Shown here: positions 44,906 to 60,209 of the stretch, in pieces
Layout of the letters: every line of letters starts with the position of its first letter
Position numbering within the stretch: the first letter of the stretch is position 1
NCBI GenBank assembly: GCA_900768265.1
Contig: CAAGCF010000004.1
Coordinates: 25,881 to 89,880, forward strand
Direction of reading: 5' to 3'
DNA: 64,000 nt
Origin: an uncultured Collinsella sp.
Lineage (GTDB): Bacteria; Actinomycetota; Coriobacteriia; Coriobacteriales; Coriobacteriaceae
Position numbers and translations under genes: made by a program
Notes under the pieces: model-generated
Seen by the model: the letters and a program-made list of their open reading frames with translations, nothing else
The model's database searches: none
Told to the model about the DNA's origin: nothing

Positions 44906-45871
44906 ATGGATATGAAAGAATGCGCCGCTCCTGAGCGGCGTGTTTTTGTTGGAGGAGAACGCATACGGCCCGGGGGCACTCAGACAAAGCGTGGCGCCAC
45001 GGTGCGCATGCGACGCCGGCTGGGCCTGGCGCCTCGGGCGTATGTGCTGCTGTCTTGCTCGCTCGTGCTGGTCATAGCCGGTGTTTCGGCTTATGGCATG
45101 ACGGTGCCGTCCATGGTGCAGGCGCATGCTGCGCGCGAGTTGCATATTGGGCGCAAGGCCAAAAGCGACTTGGGAACGACAACTGGATATGCGTGGGCGA
45201 GCGTGGTCTCGCATGTTGTGTTCGGTGGCGACGATGCGGACAGTCCCGAAACATCGGACAACGAGGTTACGCTGGCAAACGGCAAGACCATCGTGCTCAC
45301 CAACACCAAGATCATCACGAAGCTTTCCAATAACAGCGTGGCTTCTGTCGTTAACAAGACGGAGCAGCAGAAGGAACAGGATACGCAGCAGACGGGTAAG
45401 CCCGGCGGCTCCGACGGGTCCGGTTCTGGCACCGGTTCGACGGGCTCGGACGGCGGTTCCGGTTCGGGCTCCGCCTCTGGCGGTGGATCTTCGAGTGGTG
45501 GCTCGACGGACGGCGGTGCCGGCGGCGACACGGGCTCGGGTGGTCTCTCGGCTGCCGAGGAGGAGAGTATCCACAGTTGGCTCGTGACCAAATACAACAT
45601 GCTCGATGGCTATGTCGCCCGCGCCAATAGCGTGGTGTCGACCTATAACGCCACGGGCGATACCGGACCGTGCGACACCCTGGCGAATGACATGTTTGTT
45701 ATCCGTGCCGAGTTTGGTCGACAAAGGTTCTCGACCAAATCTAAGTGGTATCGGCAGTATGCCAATCTGTGGGGCTGCTATACCAACCTGTGTCAATGGG
45801 TTGGGCACTACGGCAACGACGACGTCGCGCTCAACAACTTCAACACCAATGTGGCGGCGATCGCCCTATGA
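44906..45871 (+). CDS. Hypothetical membrane-anchored protein with Gly/Ser linker (start uncertain)
   Basis: TM helix, GS-rich linker, Cys/Tyr/Trp-containing C-terminal domain; ATGA overlap with next gene. Confidence 0.7.
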   Translation: MDMKECAAPERRVFVGGERIRPGGTQTKRGATVRMRRRLGLAPRAYVLLSCSLVLVIAGVSAYGMTVPSMVQAHAARELHIGRKAKSDLGTTTGYAWASVVSHVVFGGDDADSPETSDNEVTLANGKTIVLTNTKIITKLSNNSVASVVNKTEQQKEQDTQQTGKPGGSDGSGSGTGSTGSDGGSGSGSASGGGSSSGGSTDGGAGGDTGSGGLSAAEEESIHSWLVTKYNMLDGYVARANSVVSTYNATGDTGPCDTLANDMFVIRAEFGRQRFSTKSKWYRQYANLWGCYTNLCQWVGHYGNDDVALNNFNTNVAAIAL

Positions 45872-47709
45872 CGAACGACCTCGCTTCTACGGCAGCCCAG
45901 TCGCTCAACCGTGATCCCATGGTGGGCCTGCGCCTGGCGCGCGTCGACGGGTTTGAGCCGGCCGTCGCCCTGGGCACGGACGAGCTTCCCGCCTACCTGC
46001 GCCGTTTTACGATGCTGTTTGCCGATGACGCCACCATGCGCCGCGGCGGTATCGGTCGTGTGACGCGTGCCGTCAACGCGCAGGGCGAGGCCGTGGCGCT
46101 CAAGCAGCTCATCTTGCCATCGCGCGACGAATTTGATGACGATGTCGCCCGCGAGGCGCTGGTCACCAAGTTCAAGGCGGCGTTTCGCGAGGAATATGAA
46201 TGCCATCGTGCCCTTTCGGGCCTTAAGGGCTTTCCCCGCCTATACGGGTGGGGCGAGGTCGACGGCGTGCCCGCGATTGTTATGGAGTGGGTCGAGGGCG
46301 AGACGCTCGCTCGCCTGCGCTCGCGCCTTGCCGTGGACGATGCCGGGCGTCTGTCGCCGCTCGTGGCGGCGCGCCTGGGTCGCGACCTGTTCGATCTGCT
46401 CTGCCGCATGAGCTTGGTAGGCGAGGGGTTCGTCCATCGCGATATCTCGCCCGCTAATATTATGGTGCGCACGTCGCGCCTGCCGCTCGACCGACAGCTT
46501 GCCGAAGGCACTTTCGACCTGTGCTTGATCGACTTTGGCTCGTCGCTGGCGCTCGAGCCCGCCTCTGCGGTGGCCGGCACCGGCGGCAAGGCGTCGTTTA
46601 CCGAGCGCTATGCCACGTTGCGCCGCGCGACGGTGGCCTACGCCCCGCCCGAGATGCTCACCGACGATATTCCCGACCTGCGCATGCTTCGCACGTCGCC
46701 GGCAATCGATGTCTATGCGGCGGCGAGTACGGTCTACGAGCTCATCGCCGGTGTCGCGCCGTACGAAGTAGCACCGGGTGCGTCGGGTACTTCGGGCTCG
46801 CGCAAAAAGACGCGCGATATCGCCAGCCCTTATCGCCTCAAGATGGATACGCTGCCCGATTATCCCGTCGGCGCCCATGCGCCCGGCTGCGACTTGACGC
46901 AACTGCTGCGACGCGAGCCCGATGTGGCACTTGCCGCGGCCGAGCAGGCTCAGCAGCTGGGGCTCGATCCAAATTCCGAGGATCTGCGCGATGCGCTGGC
47001 GTTTGTCGACGCTCAGCTGTTCGATGTGGTGATGGTCTGCCTGTCCTGCCATCAGGAAGATCGTCCCGAGCCGGCTGCGGTGGAGGCGGCGCTCTCGGCA
47101 TTTTGCGACCACTATGCGCAAAATGTCGCCCGCTCGCTTCGCGCCGAGCCGCTCATGCCGTGCCCGATGGAGGTATCGGGGCATACAGCCCGGCGCGCGG
47201 TGATGGTTGGTGCGACGGCGGCATGCGGCGTGCTTTGGGCTGTGGTCGTGGTATCAGCGGCGCTGTTGGTGTCGGGCGCCCATGTGACGATTGCCGCGGG
47301 GCCTCTTATGTGGTCCGGGAAGCTGCCGGCCATTGCCGCCGCGCTGGCGTTGGCACTGCCGGGCATGGCGGGCATCGCTGCCGGGGCCTTGGCGCGCGAT
47401 CGCCGCGCGGGATTCCTGCAGGGCGTGTTGGCCCTTTCTGCCTGCGAGGTTCCGGCTCTGGCCGCACTCGCATGTGCCGTGTTTTCCCAGCATGCCGTGG
47501 CGGGTGGCCTGGTGGCCGCCATAATTGCAACCTATGCGCTCACGTGGTTTTTGCTGGCGATGGGGTTTGCCTTTGAGCTTCCCGTCGTGTCAGCACGACG
47601 TGCGAAAATTCCCATGGCGACGCCGCTTGCCGGCGGAGCCGCGGCTGCCCGCGCCTTTGGCGGGACGGCCGAAGTATCCGACGCTATCTCTGCGACCAAG
47701 GAGGGCTAA
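45868..47709 (+). CDS. Ser/Thr kinase with C-terminal TM helices
   Basis: GGIGRV, VALK, HRDISPAN, DFG, YAPPE, DVYA; about 4 TM helices. Confidence 0.87.
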   Translation: MTNDLASTAAQSLNRDPMVGLRLARVDGFEPAVALGTDELPAYLRRFTMLFADDATMRRGGIGRVTRAVNAQGEAVALKQLILPSRDEFDDDVAREALVTKFKAAFREEYECHRALSGLKGFPRLYGWGEVDGVPAIVMEWVEGETLARLRSRLAVDDAGRLSPLVAARLGRDLFDLLCRMSLVGEGFVHRDISPANIMVRTSRLPLDRQLAEGTFDLCLIDFGSSLALEPASAVAGTGGKASFTERYATLRRATVAYAPPEMLTDDIPDLRMLRTSPAIDVYAAASTVYELIAGVAPYEVAPGASGTSGSRKKTRDIASPYRLKMDTLPDYPVGAHAPGCDLTQLLRREPDVALAAAEQAQQLGLDPNSEDLRDALAFVDAQLFDVVMVCLSCHQEDRPEPAAVEAALSAFCDHYAQNVARSLRAEPLMPCPMEVSGHTARRAVMVGATAACGVLWAVVVVSAALLVSGAHVTIAAGPLMWSGKLPAIAAALALALPGMAGIAAGALARDRRAGFLQGVLALSACEVPALAALACAVFSQHAVAGGLVAAIIATYALTWFLLAMGFAFELPVVSARRAKIPMATPLAGGAAAARAFGGTAEVSDAISATKEG

Positions 47710-47712
47710 GCC

Positions 47713-48651
47713 ATGGCTTCTCAAGCCGAGCTCACCCCGTGCGGGGCAATGTTTGACATCTTTAAGCGCGCTGCGCACCTGAGCCATATCGAACTGTGCG
47801 GCCTGGTGCTCTCGAGCCGCCCGCTCGCCGATGGCCGTAGCCCTCAGAGCCGTGCCGCCGATCGCTCCTGGGTTTCGCGCTTTATCGTGCGCGCGCCGGT
47901 CGGCACGCTGCAGGAACGTTATTTTGCCGATTACGGCACCTCGGCCGCACGCATTATGTCGCAGCTGGCCTTGCGCCGTCGCAATCCCATGGACGCCGCG
48001 GCCGTGACCAATATGGTGTGCGGCCCCGCTGGCGAGCCCATGGTGCGGGCACTCGAGGAATGCCATCAGGACACGAATCTCTATCGCAATGCGCTCGAGC
48101 GCCTGTCGCAGGCGGCTGAGCTCATGCCCGCCGAGCGCGCCGAGGCCATCCTGGTGCTGTTTGTCGCCGTGGGCTGCTCGGCAGATGTCCGCTCGTCGGT
48201 GACCTATGCCATCGACTACGCTCATGCGACCTGTGGCGGCGCCACGTCGACGCCGCGCTCGCTGAGCACATCTTCGGTCGCGGGCGAGCACGAGGTCGCG
48301 CCGGCGCATCCGCTGGGACTGCTGCGCGTGCAAAACGGCTACGTGGTGAGCGCCCCGCGCTGGATTCAACCGAGTGAGGAAGGCGTCGAGATCGGCGCGC
48401 TGGCAACGGGGGAGGGCGACATCACCGACGTCGGCGACGACGTCTCGGCCCGTCATGCCCATATCTGGTGCGACGATTCCGGCACATGGTTTGTCGAGGA
48501 CCTGTCATCCACGAACGGCACCGTGGTGGTAAACGGGGCCACGAGCGTGTGTATTCAAGTAGAGCCCGGTCGTTCCGCCCAGCTCAACCCCGGCGACGAG
48601 CTCAAGCTCGGCGAATCCACCACCTACGCCATCCTCCTCGGCGCCCTCTAG
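47713..48651 (+). CDS. FHA-domain protein with unknown N-terminal domain
   Basis: C-terminal VSARHA..DLSSTNGT..L.PGD. Confidence 0.85.
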   Translation: MASQAELTPCGAMFDIFKRAAHLSHIELCGLVLSSRPLADGRSPQSRAADRSWVSRFIVRAPVGTLQERYFADYGTSAARIMSQLALRRRNPMDAAAVTNMVCGPAGEPMVRALEECHQDTNLYRNALERLSQAAELMPAERAEAILVLFVAVGCSADVRSSVTYAIDYAHATCGGATSTPRSLSTSSVAGEHEVAPAHPLGLLRVQNGYVVSAPRWIQPSEEGVEIGALATGEGDITDVGDDVSARHAHIWCDDSGTWFVEDLSSTNGTVVVNGATSVCIQVEPGRSAQLNPGDELKLGESTTYAILLGAL

Positions 48652-52641: not shown

Positions 52642-52651
52642 GTCTCTCACC

Positions 52652-52776
52652 GCAGGATCTGAGGGCTGACCTTCGCGGACGTCCTCGGACATGAAAGAAC
52701 CCCCGCTGCGCACTACGTGCGGCGGGGGTTCTTTCGTCCTGCGGAATGTCCGCGAAAGTCAGCCCTCAGATACTGC
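52652..52776 (+). terminator. Terminator nested in a long outer inverted repeat
   Basis: Inner GAAAGAACCCCCGC/GCGGGGGTTCTTTC (52693-52735); outer 29-bp arms 52652-52680 and 52748-52776. Confidence 0.75.
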
Positions 52777-53057
52777 TACGACTACGTCCTCGGATTGTGG
52801 GGCTGAATGAAGGACGTGGTCGGTGGGGCCTTTTGTCCCCTTCGCTGTTTCGCGGCTTTGCCGCGAAAACTCGCGTTACTTTGGGAAAGGGCTGGGGACT
52901 TGGTTGTTACCGCCTTTTATCCCTTTGCTTTTTCGCGCCTTTGGCTCGAAACGTGCAGCGCTATGGAGAGGGCTGGGGACGCTGTTGTTGGCGTCTTCAG
53001 CCCTCTGATTACTACTTTGTGTCCCGTGGTGGGACTTTGTTGGTGCTACCTGGTTGT

Positions 53058-53582
53058 TTACCTTGTCTCGCCGCTCTCTGTGCGTAGGCGGTAGCCGTGG
53101 ACGAGGTCGCTAATAGCCGGCCAGGGAATCTGGCGGTCGACCCAAAATTGGAGCTGGACCAGATAGCGCTCGGTGGCGCGGGTGAGGGCCGCAAACTGTT
53201 CGTGAGTCTCTACCTGGGCGTAGAGGTCGCGGCTGTGGGCGAGGATTGCCGTGGTGTCATCCATTTTGCCGGTGACGTCGAAGGCACCCGAGAACCAGTC
53301 GCACAGGCGCGCGGCACTGTTGTTGATCGTTGCGAGGTCGGCGGTGCCGTCGTTGGCGTTTTCGTTGGCCTGGGCTCGCAGGAGGGAGAGAGCGTCGGTG
53401 GCGTTCATACAGTAGCCGACGGTGAAGTTCCAGACGGCGAATTCGCGGCCGGTGTCGAGCTTGCGGCGGCGCATGTAGTCGATGTCGCGGGGCTCCTCGA
53501 GCATCATTTGGTCGGCGAGGGCTTCAAGTGCAGTGGCGTACTCAGCAAGGTCGAGCGTGAGTAGGGTGTTGATATCCATCAT
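53058..53582 (-). CDS. Cucumopine synthase/McbB C-terminal helical-bundle-like protein
   Basis: 174 aa, SD GGAGG; LEEPRDI near N-terminus and VET.EQF..L....Y...L..W....PW near C-terminus. Confidence 0.65.
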   Translation of the reverse strand: MMDINTLLTLDLAEYATALEALADQMMLEEPRDIDYMRRRKLDTGREFAVWNFTVGYCMNATDALSLLRAQANENANDGTADLATINNSAARLCDWFSGAFDVTGKMDDTTAILAHSRDLYAQVETHEQFAALTRATERYLVQLQFWVDRQIPWPAISDLVHGYRLRTESGETR

Positions 53583-53584
53583 CT

Positions 53585-54001
53585 TTAGGCCTCCGCTTCG
53601 ATCTCGACGATTTCGTTTTTGATGTACATGCCCTGGTTGTCCCAGACATTGCGGCAGGCGGCGGCAAAGCGCTCGCGGTCGGCTTCGCAGATGCGGGCGA
53701 ACATGTTGCAGGTGCCAAAGGGCTCGCACACGTCAAAGAAGATGCAAATTGACGACCAGCCGCCATACCAGCTCACGGCGCCCGCCGGCTCGTGAAAGAC
53801 GGGGTTCTCGATGTGCTCATAGTTGGCGATGGGGCCCGAGACAGGATACGTTACCTCGGCATCACAAATCTTTGCCGAGAAGATGCGTGATTCCACGGGG
53901 CAAGACGCCTCGAACAGCTTGCATGTTTCGGGCGCTTCATCCCAGAGCATGTCGGCGAGAAACGTCTCGCCATTCAACGTGATCTTGAGCATTTTTGTCA
54001 T
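53585..54001 (-). CDS. Cyclophilin-like fold protein (DUF3830 / cucumopine synthase N-domain-like)
   Basis: 138 aa, SD GAGGAGG; F.A.ML.DEAPETC..F...P, EN....P.G.V, I.IFF. Confidence 0.7.
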   Translation of the reverse strand: MTKMLKITLNGETFLADMLWDEAPETCKLFEASCPVESRIFSAKICDAEVTYPVSGPIANYEHIENPVFHEPAGAVSWYGGWSSICIFFDVCEPFGTCNMFARICEADRERFAAACRNVWDNQGMYIKNEIVEIEAEA

Positions 54002-54603
54002 AGTAAGGACCTCCTCAATCCGTCGCTCAAGGGGCTCGCTGGCGGATAAGGAGAAGACAGCAGCGGGGTCGCCGAACCCAAACTTCACGACAGATCTCTG
54101 TCGCCCCAGCCCGCGCTGTTCTTCGCTAAAGTACCATGCCGCAATTGCGCGCGCAATATCAGTTTTTGATTTTCTGGAAGCGGCAATCGACGAGACGGCT
54201 CGCCGGCTGCCGGCCGACGCGCGGCATAGGCACTCGTCTATTCCTTAAGTTGGATGAAAAACGCCATGTTATTGCAGGGCTGCATACTCGTTCAATAAGT
54301 GCATAGAATCTCGTATAGTGCGAGTAAGATTTTGCGCTATCTGATTTATGTTTAGCAAAGATATAGTTTGCATAATCCAGCCTAATCCTCGCTCCATTTA
54401 AATAAAGTCGCACGTAAATGGCGTAAACATATCTGAGCTGGCATTCTTTACGCTGAGCGGATAAAAACGACCGTTCACCGTTCAACTATTTTCAAAATGA
54501 ATAAAATGAGCGATAAAGAGAATATAAACCTTAATAAACTCGCGTATTGCACGGACGCGGGTTATTAATGGGTTGTAGGCCTTTTACAGAAAGGATTCCA
54601 GCA

Positions 54604-55684: not shown

Positions 55685-55955
55685 TAGTCATTGGGGACAG
55701 ACTTAAATGAGTGGCACCAATCAACTGCGGAAAGTGCATCCCACAATGAGTGTCCAAAGCGGGGCACAGTTTCCTTTGAGGCCTTCAACCGGAAAATACA
55801 TCCCGGAATTTGGCCGAAAAGTGGCCCCCAGCTTCCCAAACAGGCCGCTAACGGAAAGCGCATCCCGCTATCGAACTTCAAAGCGGGGTGCGCTTTCTGT
55901 GCCAGCAGTTCCGGGCAGCCAGAGACCACTCATTTAAGTCTGTCCCCAATGACTA
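55685..55955. mobile_element. 271-bp MITE/REPIN-like element with perfect 30-bp terminal inverted repeats
   Basis: TAGTCATTGGGGACAGACTTAAATGAGTGG / CCACTCATTTAAGTCTGTCCCCAATGACTA; three internal hairpin units. Confidence 0.75.
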
Positions 55956-56987
55956 GTAGTAGGCCCACATGGCTTCGACTTCGTTAAGGACCTCTACGAC
56001 GCCCCAGCGGCGGGCGCTGCGGCTGGCCGAGTTGGGATCGAAGACTTCAATCTGGTCGGCGTCGTCAATACCGTAAAGCACAATGTAGTGGCCCACGTTG
56101 GTAAAGGTGCCCGGCCGAACGGCTGCGATGACGGGCGCTCCCGAACGCAGCGCCTGAGTCATCGAGTCGCGATCGTTATGGAGCTCCGTTCCGTTAAGTC
56201 CCAACTGCCACGCGCCGCTCGTCATAAACGACCATTCGGTTGCACCGGTGGGGGCGTAATTGCCCGCCTCGGAAAGCGCGCACATATCGACGGGGGTCAT
56301 ATCGGTGCGTCCCGTCTTAAAGATATAGACCATGGTGAGGCACGTGGGCCCGCATGCATTTTGGCGGATGGTGCCGCCGGCGTAAGGCAGCTCCGACCAC
56401 GCAGGGTCGATCTGATAGATATGGGGCATCGCGCCGGCTTGCCATTGCGAGCGCGGGGTCGAAAAGGCGAAAGAATAACCGGGCGCGACGGGGGCCTTGA
56501 GCAGCTTGTCCTCGGCGGTGGGCTCAAGGCCGGCCGAGCCGTGGGACATACAGGAGCTCATAAGCACAAAGACCAGACAGATGAGGATAGAGCACAGTGC
56601 GAGGCAAAGTCGACGAGCCGGCAGGGCGGGGGCATTCACGTACGATGTCGAGCGGTAGGGCTTGCCGTCGCGTCCGCCTTGGGAATGCGAAAAGAAGCGG
56701 TTGATATGGATGCCGGACTGACGTGCGCCGTTGCGGCGCAGTTGCGGAACTTCGGCCTGGCGCTGTCGAGTGCGCGCACCCAAACGGCTGTCTTGCTGTG
56801 CGCTTGTGCCCGTGCTCGGACGGTCACTCTGCCGTGTTCTGCTTGTCTGCTGCCGAGACGAAGGCCTGGGTTGCTCTTGAGGGCGTTGCGGATTGCTGCT
56901 CGTGGCACTTCTAGGCGTCGGCGTGGTGCGGCCAGCAAGGCGAACGCTTTGTCGCCGTTGATCACCGTCGTTGTATCCGTATGCCAT
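55953..56987 (-). CDS. Membrane-anchored C39-like (papain-fold) peptidase
   Basis: YQ.D..W...Y..G.I...ACGPT, GHYIVL, DPNS; Arg-rich N-terminus and TM. Confidence 0.82.
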   Translation of the reverse strand: MAYGYNDGDQRRQSVRLAGRTTPTPRSATSSNPQRPQEQPRPSSRQQTSRTRQSDRPSTGTSAQQDSRLGARTRQRQAEVPQLRRNGARQSGIHINRFFSHSQGGRDGKPYRSTSYVNAPALPARRLCLALCSILICLVFVLMSSCMSHGSAGLEPTAEDKLLKAPVAPGYSFAFSTPRSQWQAGAMPHIYQIDPAWSELPYAGGTIRQNACGPTCLTMVYIFKTGRTDMTPVDMCALSEAGNYAPTGATEWSFMTSGAWQLGLNGTELHNDRDSMTQALRSGAPVIAAVRPGTFTNVGHYIVLYGIDDADQIEVFDPNSASRSARRWGVVEVLNEVEAMWAYY

Positions 56988-57348: not shown

Positions 57349-58800
57349 ATGGCGGACAAGAACGCAGAAGTTGCAGTCGAAGGTAACGGCGGCATGAAGA
57401 AAACGCTTTCGCTCTGGAACTTCTTCACCATCGGTTTCGGTGCCATCATCGGAACTGGCTGGGTCCTGCAGGTCGGCGACTGGATGGTCGTGGGCGGTGG
57501 TCCCGTTCCCGCTATGATCGCATTCCTCTTGGGTGCAATCTTCCTCGTGCCCGTCGGAGCTGTTTTCGGTGAGCTCACGGCTGCTATCCCCATCTCGGGC
57601 GGTATCGTCGAGTATGTCGATCGTAGCTTTGGCCGTACGCTGAGCTACATCACCGGTTGGCTCCTGGCCCTGGGCAACGGTATCCTGTGCCCGTGGGAGG
57701 CAATCGCCATCTCGACCCTCGTGTCCGAGATGTTCGGCAGCCTGCCCGGTCTTGAGTGGCTGCGTGCCGTCAAGCTCTATACCATCCTGGGCGCTGACGT
57801 TTACCTGTTCCCGACGCTGATCGCGCTCGGCTTTGCAGTCTATGTCATCTTCCTCAACTTCCGCGGTGCCAGCTCGGCCGCCAAGCTCCAGGCCTTCCTG
57901 ACCAAGGCCCTGCTCTGCGGCATGCTGCTCGCCATGGGCGTCTCGCTGTTCACCGGCTCGCCGGACAATGCCATGCCCGTGTTCTCCCAGGTCACCGGCG
58001 CTGGTGGCGGTAAGGCCGCTACCGAGGGCACCAGCCTGTTCGCCGGCATCGTGTCGGTTCTGGTTCTGACCCCGTTCTTCTACGCCGGTTTCGACACCAT
58101 TCCTCAGCAGGCTGAGGAAGCGGCCGAGGGCCTCAACTGGAACAAGTTCGGCAAGATCATCTCCCTGGCCCTGCTGGCCGCCGGCGGCTTCTACATGGTC
58201 TGCATCTACTCGTTCGGCACCATCCTCGACTGGCATGAGTTTGTTAAGAGCCCGGTTCCCGCGCTTGCCTGCCTCAAGGGCATCAACATGCTCCTGTACC
58301 TGGCCATGCTCGTCATCGCCACGCTTGGACCCATGGGCCCGATGAACTCCTTCTACGGCGCCACGAGCCGCATCATGCTCGCCATGGGCCGCAAGGGCCA
58401 GCTGCCTGAGAAGTTCGCCGAGGTCGATCCCAAGTCCGGCGCTCCCAAGCTCGCCTGCGTCGTGCTGGGCGTCATCACCGTCGTCGGTCCGTTCCTGGGC
58501 AAGAACATGCTCATCCCCCTGACCAACGTGTCGGCTCTCGCCTTCATCTTCTCCTGCGGCATGGTCGCCCTCGCCTGCCTGCGCATGCGCTTTACCGAGC
58601 CCGACCTGCCTCGTCCCTACGAGGTGCCCGGCGGCAAGTTTGGCATCAGCCTCGCTATTGCTGCCTGCGCCATCATCATCGGCCTGCTTGTGATTCCGTT
58701 CTCTCCCGCCTCCCTCAACATGGTGGAGTGGAGCATCGTGATCGGCTGGTTGGCTATTGGCCTGGCCCTCATGGCTTTCACCAATTCCCGCAAAAAGTAA
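57349..58800 (+). CDS. APC-family amino acid permease
   Basis: About 12 TM; GAIIGTG, EL.AA.P.SGG, YAGFD, SRI..AMGR.G.LP, RPYEVP. Confidence 0.92.
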   Translation: MADKNAEVAVEGNGGMKKTLSLWNFFTIGFGAIIGTGWVLQVGDWMVVGGGPVPAMIAFLLGAIFLVPVGAVFGELTAAIPISGGIVEYVDRSFGRTLSYITGWLLALGNGILCPWEAIAISTLVSEMFGSLPGLEWLRAVKLYTILGADVYLFPTLIALGFAVYVIFLNFRGASSAAKLQAFLTKALLCGMLLAMGVSLFTGSPDNAMPVFSQVTGAGGGKAATEGTSLFAGIVSVLVLTPFFYAGFDTIPQQAEEAAEGLNWNKFGKIISLALLAAGGFYMVCIYSFGTILDWHEFVKSPVPALACLKGINMLLYLAMLVIATLGPMGPMNSFYGATSRIMLAMGRKGQLPEKFAEVDPKSGAPKLACVVLGVITVVGPFLGKNMLIPLTNVSALAFIFSCGMVALACLRMRFTEPDLPRPYEVPGGKFGISLAIAACAIIIGLLVIPFSPASLNMVEWSIVIGWLAIGLALMAFTNSRKK

Positions 58801-58931
58801 CGCCTAGCCGGGGCGGATCGGGTGCGCGGGACCCTCTCTCCCGCGCACCGAACCCGGCACCACTTGGGTAGCTTTGTGAGGCCATAACCCAACATGGCCT
58901 CGCCCACTATATGGATCCATAAGGAGGAACC

Positions 58932-60209
58932 ATGTCCACTAAGTACGCAATCGTTGGCGGCAAGCTCATCGACGGTACCGGTGCCGAGCCGGTCGAGAAC
59001 TCCCTCGTTCTCGTCGACGACAACGGCAAGATCGAGTATGCCGGTGCTATGCAGGACCTTCCCGAGGGCGTTGAGGTTATCGACGCCGCCGGCAAGACCG
59101 TCCTTCCCGGCCTGATCGACACCCACCTGCACTTCTCGGGCAACCTGACCGACGATGACACCGACTGGGTCATGCAGCCGCTCCTCGAGAAGCAGGCCGT
59201 CGCCGTCAAGCAGGCCTACGACTGCCTCACCCACGGCCTCACCACCGTCTGCGAGATCGGCCGCTTTGGTATCCAGATTCGCGACTGCATCGACAAGGGC
59301 GTCTTCAAGGGCCCGCGCGTTCTGGCCACTGGTCTTGGCTTCTGCCGCGTTGCCGGCCACGGTGACTCCCACCACTGCACCCAGGAGCTCAACAAGGAAT
59401 CCCATCCCTGGGGCGACCAGGTCGATGGTCCTTGGGATCTGCGCAAGGCCGTCCGTCGTCGCCTGCGCGAGAACCCCGATGCCATCAAGATCTGGGCTAC
59501 CGGTGGCGGCATCTGGCGTTGGGATTCCGGTCGCGACCAGCACTATTGCTCCGAGGAGATCCAGGCCGTGGTCGAAGAGGCAAAGATGGTCGGCATCCCC
59601 GTGTGGAGTCACTGCTACAACAACCACGCCGCCGCCTACGATTCCGTTCGCTTTGGCTGCGAGCAGCTGATTCACGGCTTCGATATCGATGAGCGCACCA
59701 TGGACCTCATGGCCGAGCAGGGCACCTTCTTCACCCCGACGATCGCCTTCCTGCCCACCTGGTACGCCACCTATCCGCCCGTCTACGTCCCCGAGCTGCA
59801 CGACAAGTACGAGGGCACCCTGGTCGAGAAGGAGCTGCAGCGCAACTACGACTGCCTGCGCGAGGCCAAGAAGCGCGGCGTCGTCATGACGATCGGCTCC
59901 GACTCCTTCTCCTTCGTCACCCCGTACGGCACCTGCTCCATCGAGGAGATGTACGAGTTCGTCGACAAGATCGGCTTCACTCCGGTCGAGACCATCACCT
60001 GCGCCACCCTCAACGGTGCCAAGATGTGCCACATCGAGGACGAGACCGGTTCCATCGAGGCCGGCAAGTGCGCCGACCTGCTGGTTGTCAACGGTGACGT
60101 CGCCGCCGACATCCACGTGCTCAACACCGACAACATGGACGTCATCATGAAGGACGGCTGGATCGTCGAGGCTGGCACTTTTGGTGAGGCTAACAAATAC
60201 AGCGCCTAA
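58932..60209 (+). CDS. Metal-dependent amidohydrolase (Xaa-Pro dipeptidase-like subgroup)
   Basis: PGLIDTHLH, IKIWATGG, two further His, GSDS, G.IE.GK.ADL. Confidence 0.9.
   Translation: MSTKYAIVGGKLIDGTGAEPVENSLVLVDDNGKIEYAGAMQDLPEGVEVIDAAGKTVLPGLIDTHLHFSGNLTDDDTDWVMQPLLEKQAVAVKQAYDCLTHGLTTVCEIGRFGIQIRDCIDKGVFKGPRVLATGLGFCRVAGHGDSHHCTQELNKESHPWGDQVDGPWDLRKAVRRRLRENPDAIKIWATGGGIWRWDSGRDQHYCSEEIQAVVEEAKMVGIPVWSHCYNNHAAAYDSVRFGCEQLIHGFDIDERTMDLMAEQGTFFTPTIAFLPTWYATYPPVYVPELHDKYEGTLVEKELQRNYDCLREAKKRGVVMTIGSDSFSFVTPYGTCSIEEMYEFVDKIGFTPVETITCATLNGAKMCHIEDETGSIEAGKCADLLVVNGDVAADIHVLNTDNMDVIMKDGWIVEAGTFGEANKYSA

Follow-up and report, generated by a model that had tools for sequence, protein, structure and literature searches.

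Two adjacent genes of a Collinsella genome encode small proteins that, as judged from profile searches and predicted structures, almost certainly carry the two halves of the fold of the Pictet-Spenglerase McbB. The two predicted proteins, a β-barrel and a helical bundle, likely bind each other, and in our preferred reading, to which we give a probability of roughly 45%, the two chains assemble into a putative enzyme that cleaves the adduct formed by a polar amino acid and a carbonyl compound and so recovers the amino acid. Overall, the pair is a variant of a known fold, with a probable catabolic role. The host of the analysed DNA (64 000 nucleotides; 'the window' in what follows) belongs to the Collinsella aerofaciens group; the closest loci, among the best 80 of 451 confirmed matches, are 98–99% identical and are nearly all titled Collinsella aerofaciens or Collinsella sp. 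The elements of the pair are as follows.

53585–54001, minus strand: gene of the barrel subunit (ORF1, 138 amino acids), a DUF3830/cyclophilin-like β-barrel corresponding to McbB residues 3–143
53058–53582, minus strand: gene of the helical-bundle subunit (ORF2, 174 amino acids), PF18631-like, corresponding to McbB residues 158–311
54010–54016, minus strand: Shine–Dalgarno-like GAGGAGG, 8 nt ahead of the barrel ATG
53590–53594, minus strand: Shine–Dalgarno-like GGAGG in the final codons of the barrel gene, 7 nt ahead of the bundle ATG
53723–53725, minus strand: codon of Glu93, candidate acid/base residue, one alignment column before McbB Glu97
53136–53138, minus strand: codon of Asp149, in the column of the KslB pocket residue His134 (from the HMM alignment and PMC12012969)

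These lengths are counted from the ATG codons; with GTG extensions the listed reading frames reach 167 amino acids for the barrel and 223 for the bundle. A preliminary description of this DNA had reported two linked genes separated by 2 nt, each with its own ribosome-binding motif, and had placed them outside any secondary-metabolite cluster. Both statements are borne out, and all the motifs that it quoted are present in the two frames. The position of the second GGAGG inside the barrel gene suggests translational coupling. All 80 fetched GTDB loci with ORF2 (the best 80 of 451 confirmed matches) carry both genes, 78 of them with a spacing identical to that of the window and 79 of the 80 junctions retaining the GGAGG. 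On one side of the pair a pyruvate:ferredoxin oxidoreductase gene converges on it and on the other a carbamate kinase gene diverges from it, so that the pair forms a two-gene unit of its own. No importer or catabolic gene lies within this transcription unit in the window, and a consensus scan found neither a sigma-70-like promoter nor a minus-strand terminator downstream of the pair.

Predicted fold of the two gene products

ORF1 matches the Pfam family DUF3830 (PF12903) with 32.5 bits against a gathering cut-off of 26, whereas the sole Pfam match of ORF2, to Cucumopine_C, stays below its cut-off (17 bits against 27, E = 0.0068), so that the proposed Pfam assignments stand for the first protein and fall short of the threshold for the second. 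An NCBIfam search gave no name for either. The barrel was compared as a predicted structure (AlphaFold, pLDDT 89.8) using Foldseek and VIA: residues 3–143 of McbB (3x27) were matched with an E-value of 3.5e-7 and a TM score of 0.84 by Foldseek and with a Z-score of 18.1 by VIA (rmsd 2.4 over 131 aligned residues), next to 19.1 for 3KOP, 17.7 for KslB residues 179–317 and 16.3 for TM1367. The model of the bundle (pLDDT 95.4) has McbB (Z = 16.2, rmsd 2.5, 148 residues aligned) and KslB (Z = 14.3) as its first-ranked matches among 48 161 chains, the next unrelated match reaching 11.5; Foldseek also ranked KslB and McbB at the top, but with E-values of 0.025–0.17 only.

Single-sequence and narrow-profile searches of the PDB sequences missed McbB. 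Wider profiles reached it, with a weak match for the barrel (E = 0.044) and a clear one for the bundle: when 50 stand-alone homologs of the bundle were combined in one profile (A4), McbB 3x27 came out at 4.8e-14, KslB/AsKslB near 1e-6 and the following match at 0.048. A natural single-chain protein of 314 amino acids (P0115) matches both halves in the barrel–bundle order: its first 122 residues are 40% identical to the barrel, and its second half is 35% identical to the bundle. The profile, structural-model and P0115 matches agree, and the fold proposed for the 138- and 174-residue proteins in the preliminary description therefore holds, including the McbB order of the halves. Its statement that both McbB and KslB have the barrel at the N-terminus and the bundle at the C-terminus is right for McbB, but KslB has the reverse order according to PMC12012969.

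A predicted pocket, apparently retained in part

The preferred reading can be put as a mechanism. An α2β2 assembly (barrel2–bundle2), like the McbB and KslB dimers, would place the active site between barrel and bundle. The backbone of the loop Ala43–Cys46 would hold the carboxylate of the substrate, Asp149 would read a polar or basic side chain and Trp82 would narrow the indole site. Acid/base chemistry by Glu93 (or Glu49) might then open an imine- or aminal-type linkage, in a Pictet-Spengler reaction run backwards or in its C–N half only, and this cleavage would free the amino acid from the adduct.

Residues were compared using McbB numbers obtained from the PDB file with a 21-residue offset, which was fixed by Leu85 and Glu97 (PMC12547825 and PMC12012969). 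The carboxylate-binding loop (KslB 223–225) aligns without gaps to Ala43-Lys-Ile-Cys46, its downstream tyrosine being replaced by Thr51, and in the HMM alignment of the bundle Phe46 and Phe89 of KslB are retained as Phe53 and Phe101, with Tyr92 replaced by Thr104. Trp82 (20 of 22 barrel rows) aligns with McbB Leu85 and KslB Thr261. Barrel residues 75–88 contain no Arg or Lys, where Arg256 and Lys264 of KslB bind the 2-oxo acid; this site was placed by offset (Thr261 = McbB Leu85 = Trp82) rather than by a direct alignment with the KslB barrel. The parts of the pocket that hold the amino acid thus appear to be retained, and those that hold the indole and the 2-oxo acid appear to have changed.

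The candidate acid/base residue is more ambiguous. The glutamate of VCEPFG had been placed roughly at the position of the catalytic glutamate of McbB; it does lie in the right loop, which is of equal length, but one column before Glu97, a column filled here by Pro94. The same shift is seen against a mikimopine-synthase-like protein and the barrel of a related pair on plasmid pRi1724, both of which keep the McbB spacing, and this counts against the preferred reading. Glu93 is present in 19 of 22 barrel rows, its equivalent being missing in P0164 and in the first paralogous pair of genome G692. On the other hand, close relatives have Thr-Glu at this site, as do McbB and KslB, so Glu93 may still be the residue homologous to McbB Glu97 and KslB Glu274.

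We may wonder at this stage whether the fold has instead been repurposed, with Cys46, Glu49, Cys86 and Asp149 forming a thiol or metal site of a hydrolase, lyase or isomerase that acts on an amino-acid derivative by non-Pictet-Spengler chemistry. Conservation speaks for this alternative: Glu49, which aligns with McbB His51, and Cys86 are found in 22 of 22 barrel rows, Cys46 and Asn66 in 21 of 22 and Asp149 in 50 of 50 bundle rows, McbB has Ser, His, Ala and Leu in these columns, and Glu93 is both less conserved and out of register, with a Thr in place of the carboxylate-site Tyr. The clustering of these residues is, however, presumed from the sequence, Cys86 may be a buried strand residue, and the invariance of the barrel is partly kinship because the alignment comes mostly from Coriobacteriia. 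The carboxylate loop and the two pocket phenylalanines are also retained, and we consider such a repurposed site somewhat unlikely.

Genomic context of related pairs

The preliminary description left open whether the enzyme condenses or cleaves. Neighbourhoods were read in 14 related genomes, in 67 metagenome loci, most of which are Collinsella again, and through a plasmid search. In G677 and G692 the pair sits between a family-3 binding protein gene and ABC permease and ATPase genes, in a polar-amino-acid ABC operon whose binding protein has a Lys/Arg/Orn binding protein as its best NCBIfam match, below the cut-off. The G692 operon contains two paralogous pairs from different clades (L147:8936–11850). 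In five genomes of a second genus a C45-family amide hydrolase gene lies upstream of the pair on the same strand, directly before it in G408 and G413 and with one gene between in G405, G415 and G417. A fused gene follows an oligopeptide ABC operon in G258, G671 and G705. Nothing telling was found near the genes in G663, G682, G661 and G652, and in G663 and G682 no importer lies beside the fused gene. A distant locus (L221:1–4318) has, in the same direction, an opine-dehydrogenase-domain gene, barrel, bundle and MmgE/PrpD, together with a frame that we take to be hydantoinase/oxoprolinase-like.

Two-gene relatives were also found on plasmids: pRi1724, Sinorhizobium medicae pMl1, with a nearly identical pair, and Sodalis pHS1, with a pair that is 80% identical and arranged likewise. 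Cucumopine-type opines are made from histidine and 2-oxoglutarate. On pRi1724 (L222, NC_002575.1, 25138–28022) the DUF3830 and bundle genes, 2 nt apart, adjoin a gene for a one-chain PF18631 protein where the rol-gene region/T-DNA ends. This gene, 'hypothetical' in RefSeq, is taken from its position to be a putative mikimopine synthase (PMC8087989). After the pair, and on to 45000, come genes for a polar-amino-acid ABC importer and a hydantoinase/oxoprolinase, together with hut genes. Opine catabolic genes usually adjoin the T region (PMC8087989). The arrangement on pRi1724 reads as opine catabolism and is the best anchor for the direction of the reaction; the pRi1724 pair is a candidate for the enzyme that opens the ring when mikimopine is broken down. 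Identity to this Agrobacterium pair is only about 20%, and as it sits on a long branch of its own, conclusions from its context do not necessarily carry over to Collinsella.

Taken together, the neighbourhoods of the relatives favour cleavage over condensation. Trp or His is doubtful as the substrate. Against cleavage in Collinsella stand the lack of an importer or catabolic gene in the unit, an amidohydrolase gene that lies 5 kb away and is not co-distributed, and contexts that differ between genera. The function-unknown barrel 3kop also matches as well as McbB does.

The same evidence bears on a true synthetic Pictet-Spenglerase. Such an enzyme would couple methylglyoxal, an aldehyde or a 2-oxo acid with Trp or His, and the β-carboline- or cucumopine-type products formed in the gut could serve to detoxify carbonyls or act as signals. 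All characterized enzymes of the fold are one-chain synthases (PMC12012969, PMC12536604 and PMC10372676). The fungal enzyme Fcs1 stands alone and reportedly needs no cluster, and here the Glu is in the right loop and Phe53 and Phe101 are kept. But relatives adjoin importers and hydrolases, any substitution of the Fcs1 Glu is reported to abolish activity while the Glu here is shifted in register, Trp82 replaces the Leu/Thr that packs on the indole, Asp149 replaces His134 and the basic residues that would bind 2-oxoglutarate are missing. A synthase therefore seems improbable to us, and cleavage remains the preferred reading.

An accessory two-gene unit under selection

Using a barrel profile, we found a barrel, directly upstream, in nine of nine genomes with an intact bundle and no barrel at all in 53 genomes with a remnant or no bundle, in a set that was picked by hand and contains kin that are not independent. 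In these genomes the two genes thus do not occur independently; it was independent occurrence that the preliminary description had named as speaking against its proposal. In one genome, G652 (84% complete), a bundle-like gene (L151:2315–2914) was seen and no barrel was found. A count by hand from the match table gave, among 370 other genomes of the genus, 64 with a full-length bundle, 76 with a short remnant, one with another partial match and 229 without a match. In G347, for example, a 140-bp remnant of the bundle is left (L114:7224–7363, equivalent to window positions 53305–53444) and the barrel is gone. The pair is present in five of nine genomes of the second genus, and a sample of 301 genomes of the phylum gave only two matches, both in the genus of Collinsella. 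The pair is accessory in the genus and, with 76 of 370 genomes keeping only a remnant, its function is dispensable.

Both genes are nevertheless under purifying selection. Among three Collinsella alleles dN/dS is 0.02–0.05 for the barrel and 0.08–0.12 for the bundle (Nei–Gojobori; dS up to 0.58), and against more distant relatives, with dS near saturation, 0.11–0.28 and 0.34–0.51. Over sets of 46 and 47 alleles, which include a single nonsense allele, pN/pS comes to about 0.1. In 118 of 138 aerofaciens-like loci both genes are intact; several of the others are cut by contig ends, and some contigs carry frameshifted copies.

These numbers bear on a further alternative, namely a non-catalytic ligand-binding pair or, in Collinsella, the decaying left-over of a lost operon. 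The absence of an operon in the window, the many remnant and no-match genomes, the nonsense allele and the frameshifted copies would fit it. The low dN/dS and pN/pS, the large share of intact loci and the persistence of the orphan pair in a second genus go against it, and we think it quite improbable. A role of the barrel as a peptidyl-prolyl isomerase or chaperone, paired with a helical protein of unrelated origin, is hardly credible: the fold is cyclophilin-like and cyclophilins match the barrel model with Z-scores of 10–13, but McbB, KslB and DUF3830/TM1367-type barrels score well above them (16–19), no Pfam cyclophilin match was found for the barrel, the partner matches the McbB bundle specifically and fused homologs exist. 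The putative adduct-cleaving enzyme remains our best reading; what the data themselves show is both folds, their order, the coupling-type spacing, the joint gain and loss and the purifying selection.

The preliminary description was right about fold, order and linkage, but the split of which it spoke is neither a local fission nor a peculiarity of this genome. Only four of 66 bundle matches are longer than 300 amino acids, and none of the 138 aerofaciens-like loci is fused in frame. In an unrooted bundle tree of 58 rows, built without McbB, KslB, near-duplicates and fragments, the six fused rows of Coriobacteriia type are scattered over three positions among the stand-alone rows, most of which have no locus, so that a neighbouring barrel is not visible for them. 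Holding the fused rows together was rejected (p-AU = 1e-44; 26 rows, the group having been named after the first tree was seen). Two genes are therefore the common state in this branch, and the fused forms are not one clade. As the tree is unrooted and lacks McbB and KslB, the order of fusion and fission is a matter of interpretation; the opposite domain orders of KslB and McbB fit repeated fusion of separate genes.

Four fused records (P0226, P0268, P0273 and P0276) prompted us to consider programmed frameshifting into one chain, which we rejected. They arise from single-base indels at three different junctions, in one or two contigs each; the A-run at the junction is not a canonical slippery heptamer, the shifted frame has a stop at that spot in 46 of 119 alleles and the phase of the junction varies between genera. 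These records are therefore read as sporadic indels or assembly errors, which they probably are. A separate record of 307 amino acids, P0263, seemingly has two tandem DUF3830-like barrels and no bundle.

Other features of the locus

Repeated palindromic DNA occupies the gap between the pyruvate:ferredoxin oxidoreductase and bundle genes (window 52650–52970), where many strains also have an inserted AAA_14/DUF4143 ATPase gene (L116:8937–10400, L117:6635–8008, L114:5709–7070). A gene of this family also precedes the barrel in G405, G415 and G417. A link of the pair to the divergent carbamate kinase was rejected: the kinase gene stays when the pair is deleted, and it groups with an arginine deiminase cluster in G347. 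That cluster (L114:7727–15849; two arginine deiminase genes, a DcuC-family carrier, OTCase and a regulator-like frame) has a copy of the carbamate kinase gene on either side, the two in direct orientation, which looks as though recombination between them had brought the cluster in or removed it; in the window there is a single copy, and the deiminase cluster is absent.

An APC permease and an amidohydrolase, then a LytS/LytR-type two-component pair, are encoded at 57349–60209 in the window. G692 hinted at a link between the first two and the pair, with homologs 67% (permease) and 65% (amidohydrolase) identical located 5–7 kb downstream of its two pairs, but the distribution does not support it. 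In a set of 80 hand-picked genomes overall, the amidohydrolase is present in 13 of 15 Collinsella genomes with an intact bundle, in 15 of 15 with a remnant and in 15 of 16 without a match (43 of 46 genomes of the genus); it is found in none of the five carriers of the second genus, and in the other family 4 of the 11 carriers have it, compared with 10 of the 18 non-carriers. Its best NCBIfam match is Xaa-Pro dipeptidase, below the cut-off. Elsewhere in the window, a frame at 55953–56987 with a membrane segment, no Pfam match and a QNACGPT motif, which presumably recalls C39-type peptidases, is 37–92% identical between strains, compared with 97–100% for its neighbours. The frames at 45745–48651, the first with HRDISPAN and DFG motifs and the second with an FHA-like end, we take to resemble a Ser/Thr kinase and FHA pair.

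Relation to characterized enzymes and function-unknown barrels

The assignment of the bundle family already exists in automatic annotation, and Collinsella is listed among the PF18631 genera. Our literature search returned nothing on DUF3830 and nothing on the catabolism, degradation or utilization of cucumopine or mikimopine; in titles and the beginnings of abstracts, it returned no two-gene form of the fold. The Agrobacterium pair may already have been described by Hooykaas et al. (2022; Plasmid 121:102629), a paper reportedly cited for the region of cucumopine catabolism. What sets the present pair apart is that its host lives in the human gut, that it is an orphan maintained by selection and missing from natural deletion strains, that its pocket signature is distinct and that pRi1724 provides an anchor. 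Such a two-chain protein, its pocket remodelled and its host a human gut commensal, would give the fold its first catabolic, or otherwise new, activity, and a substrate would connect a gut gene that varies between strains with what becomes of amino-acid adducts from food. A test is easy, as both genes are small, Collinsella can be cultured and nature provides strains with the intact pair alongside others with a remnant only. Another test case, better anchored and with a known candidate substrate, is the pRi1724 pair. A bolder version, which we consider unlikely as a whole, would make the pair a two-subunit retro-Pictet-Spenglerase-type enzyme of a common gut commensal for dietary or host-made amino-acid/carbonyl adducts, the widespread two-gene catabolic form the ancestor whose fusion, in one order or the other, gave rise to the one-chain opine and alkaloid synthases, and the pRi1724 pair the missing ring-opening step for mikimopine/cucumopine.

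In fold the pair is a half-and-half McbB, but it is not classed as a Pictet-Spenglerase, the two domains being on separate chains and Glu93 being no more than a candidate for the catalytic Glu. McbB itself (PDB entry 3X27), the β-carboline Pictet-Spenglerase of Marinactinospora thermotolerans, shares both domains in the same order and a carboxylate loop that aligns ungapped with the barrel of the window, at 16–18% identity. It differs in being one chain encoded in a biosynthetic cluster, and in its pocket, where besides the Glu97 and Leu85 columns (Pro and Trp here) His51 is replaced by Glu and Tyr53 by Thr. KslB/AsKslB (PDB entries 9NS6, 9K0A and 9UWA), Pictet-Spenglerases acting on Trp and 2-oxoglutarate, likewise have both folds (Z = 17.7 and 14.3), in one chain that runs from bundle to barrel (PMC12012969). 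They share the two phenylalanines, while His134 is Asp149 here, Tyr92 is Thr and Arg256 and Lys264 have no basic counterpart in Collinsella.

The pRi1724 pair (WP_010900212.1 and WP_010900213.1) shares the layout, with the same two genes and the same gap, and matches the profiles of the barrel at 2e-10 and of the bundle at 2e-15, despite its low identity. It keeps the McbB register of the glutamate and lacks Asp149, a Glu in the Glu49 register and Trp82. Its surroundings are those of histidine/opine catabolism, while in Collinsella the pair has no such neighbours. Finally, the stand-alone barrels of unknown function DUF3830 (3KOP), TM1367 (1ZX8) and AF2241 (2NNZ) are the closest sequence and fold matches of the barrel, and they share its Glu49 column.
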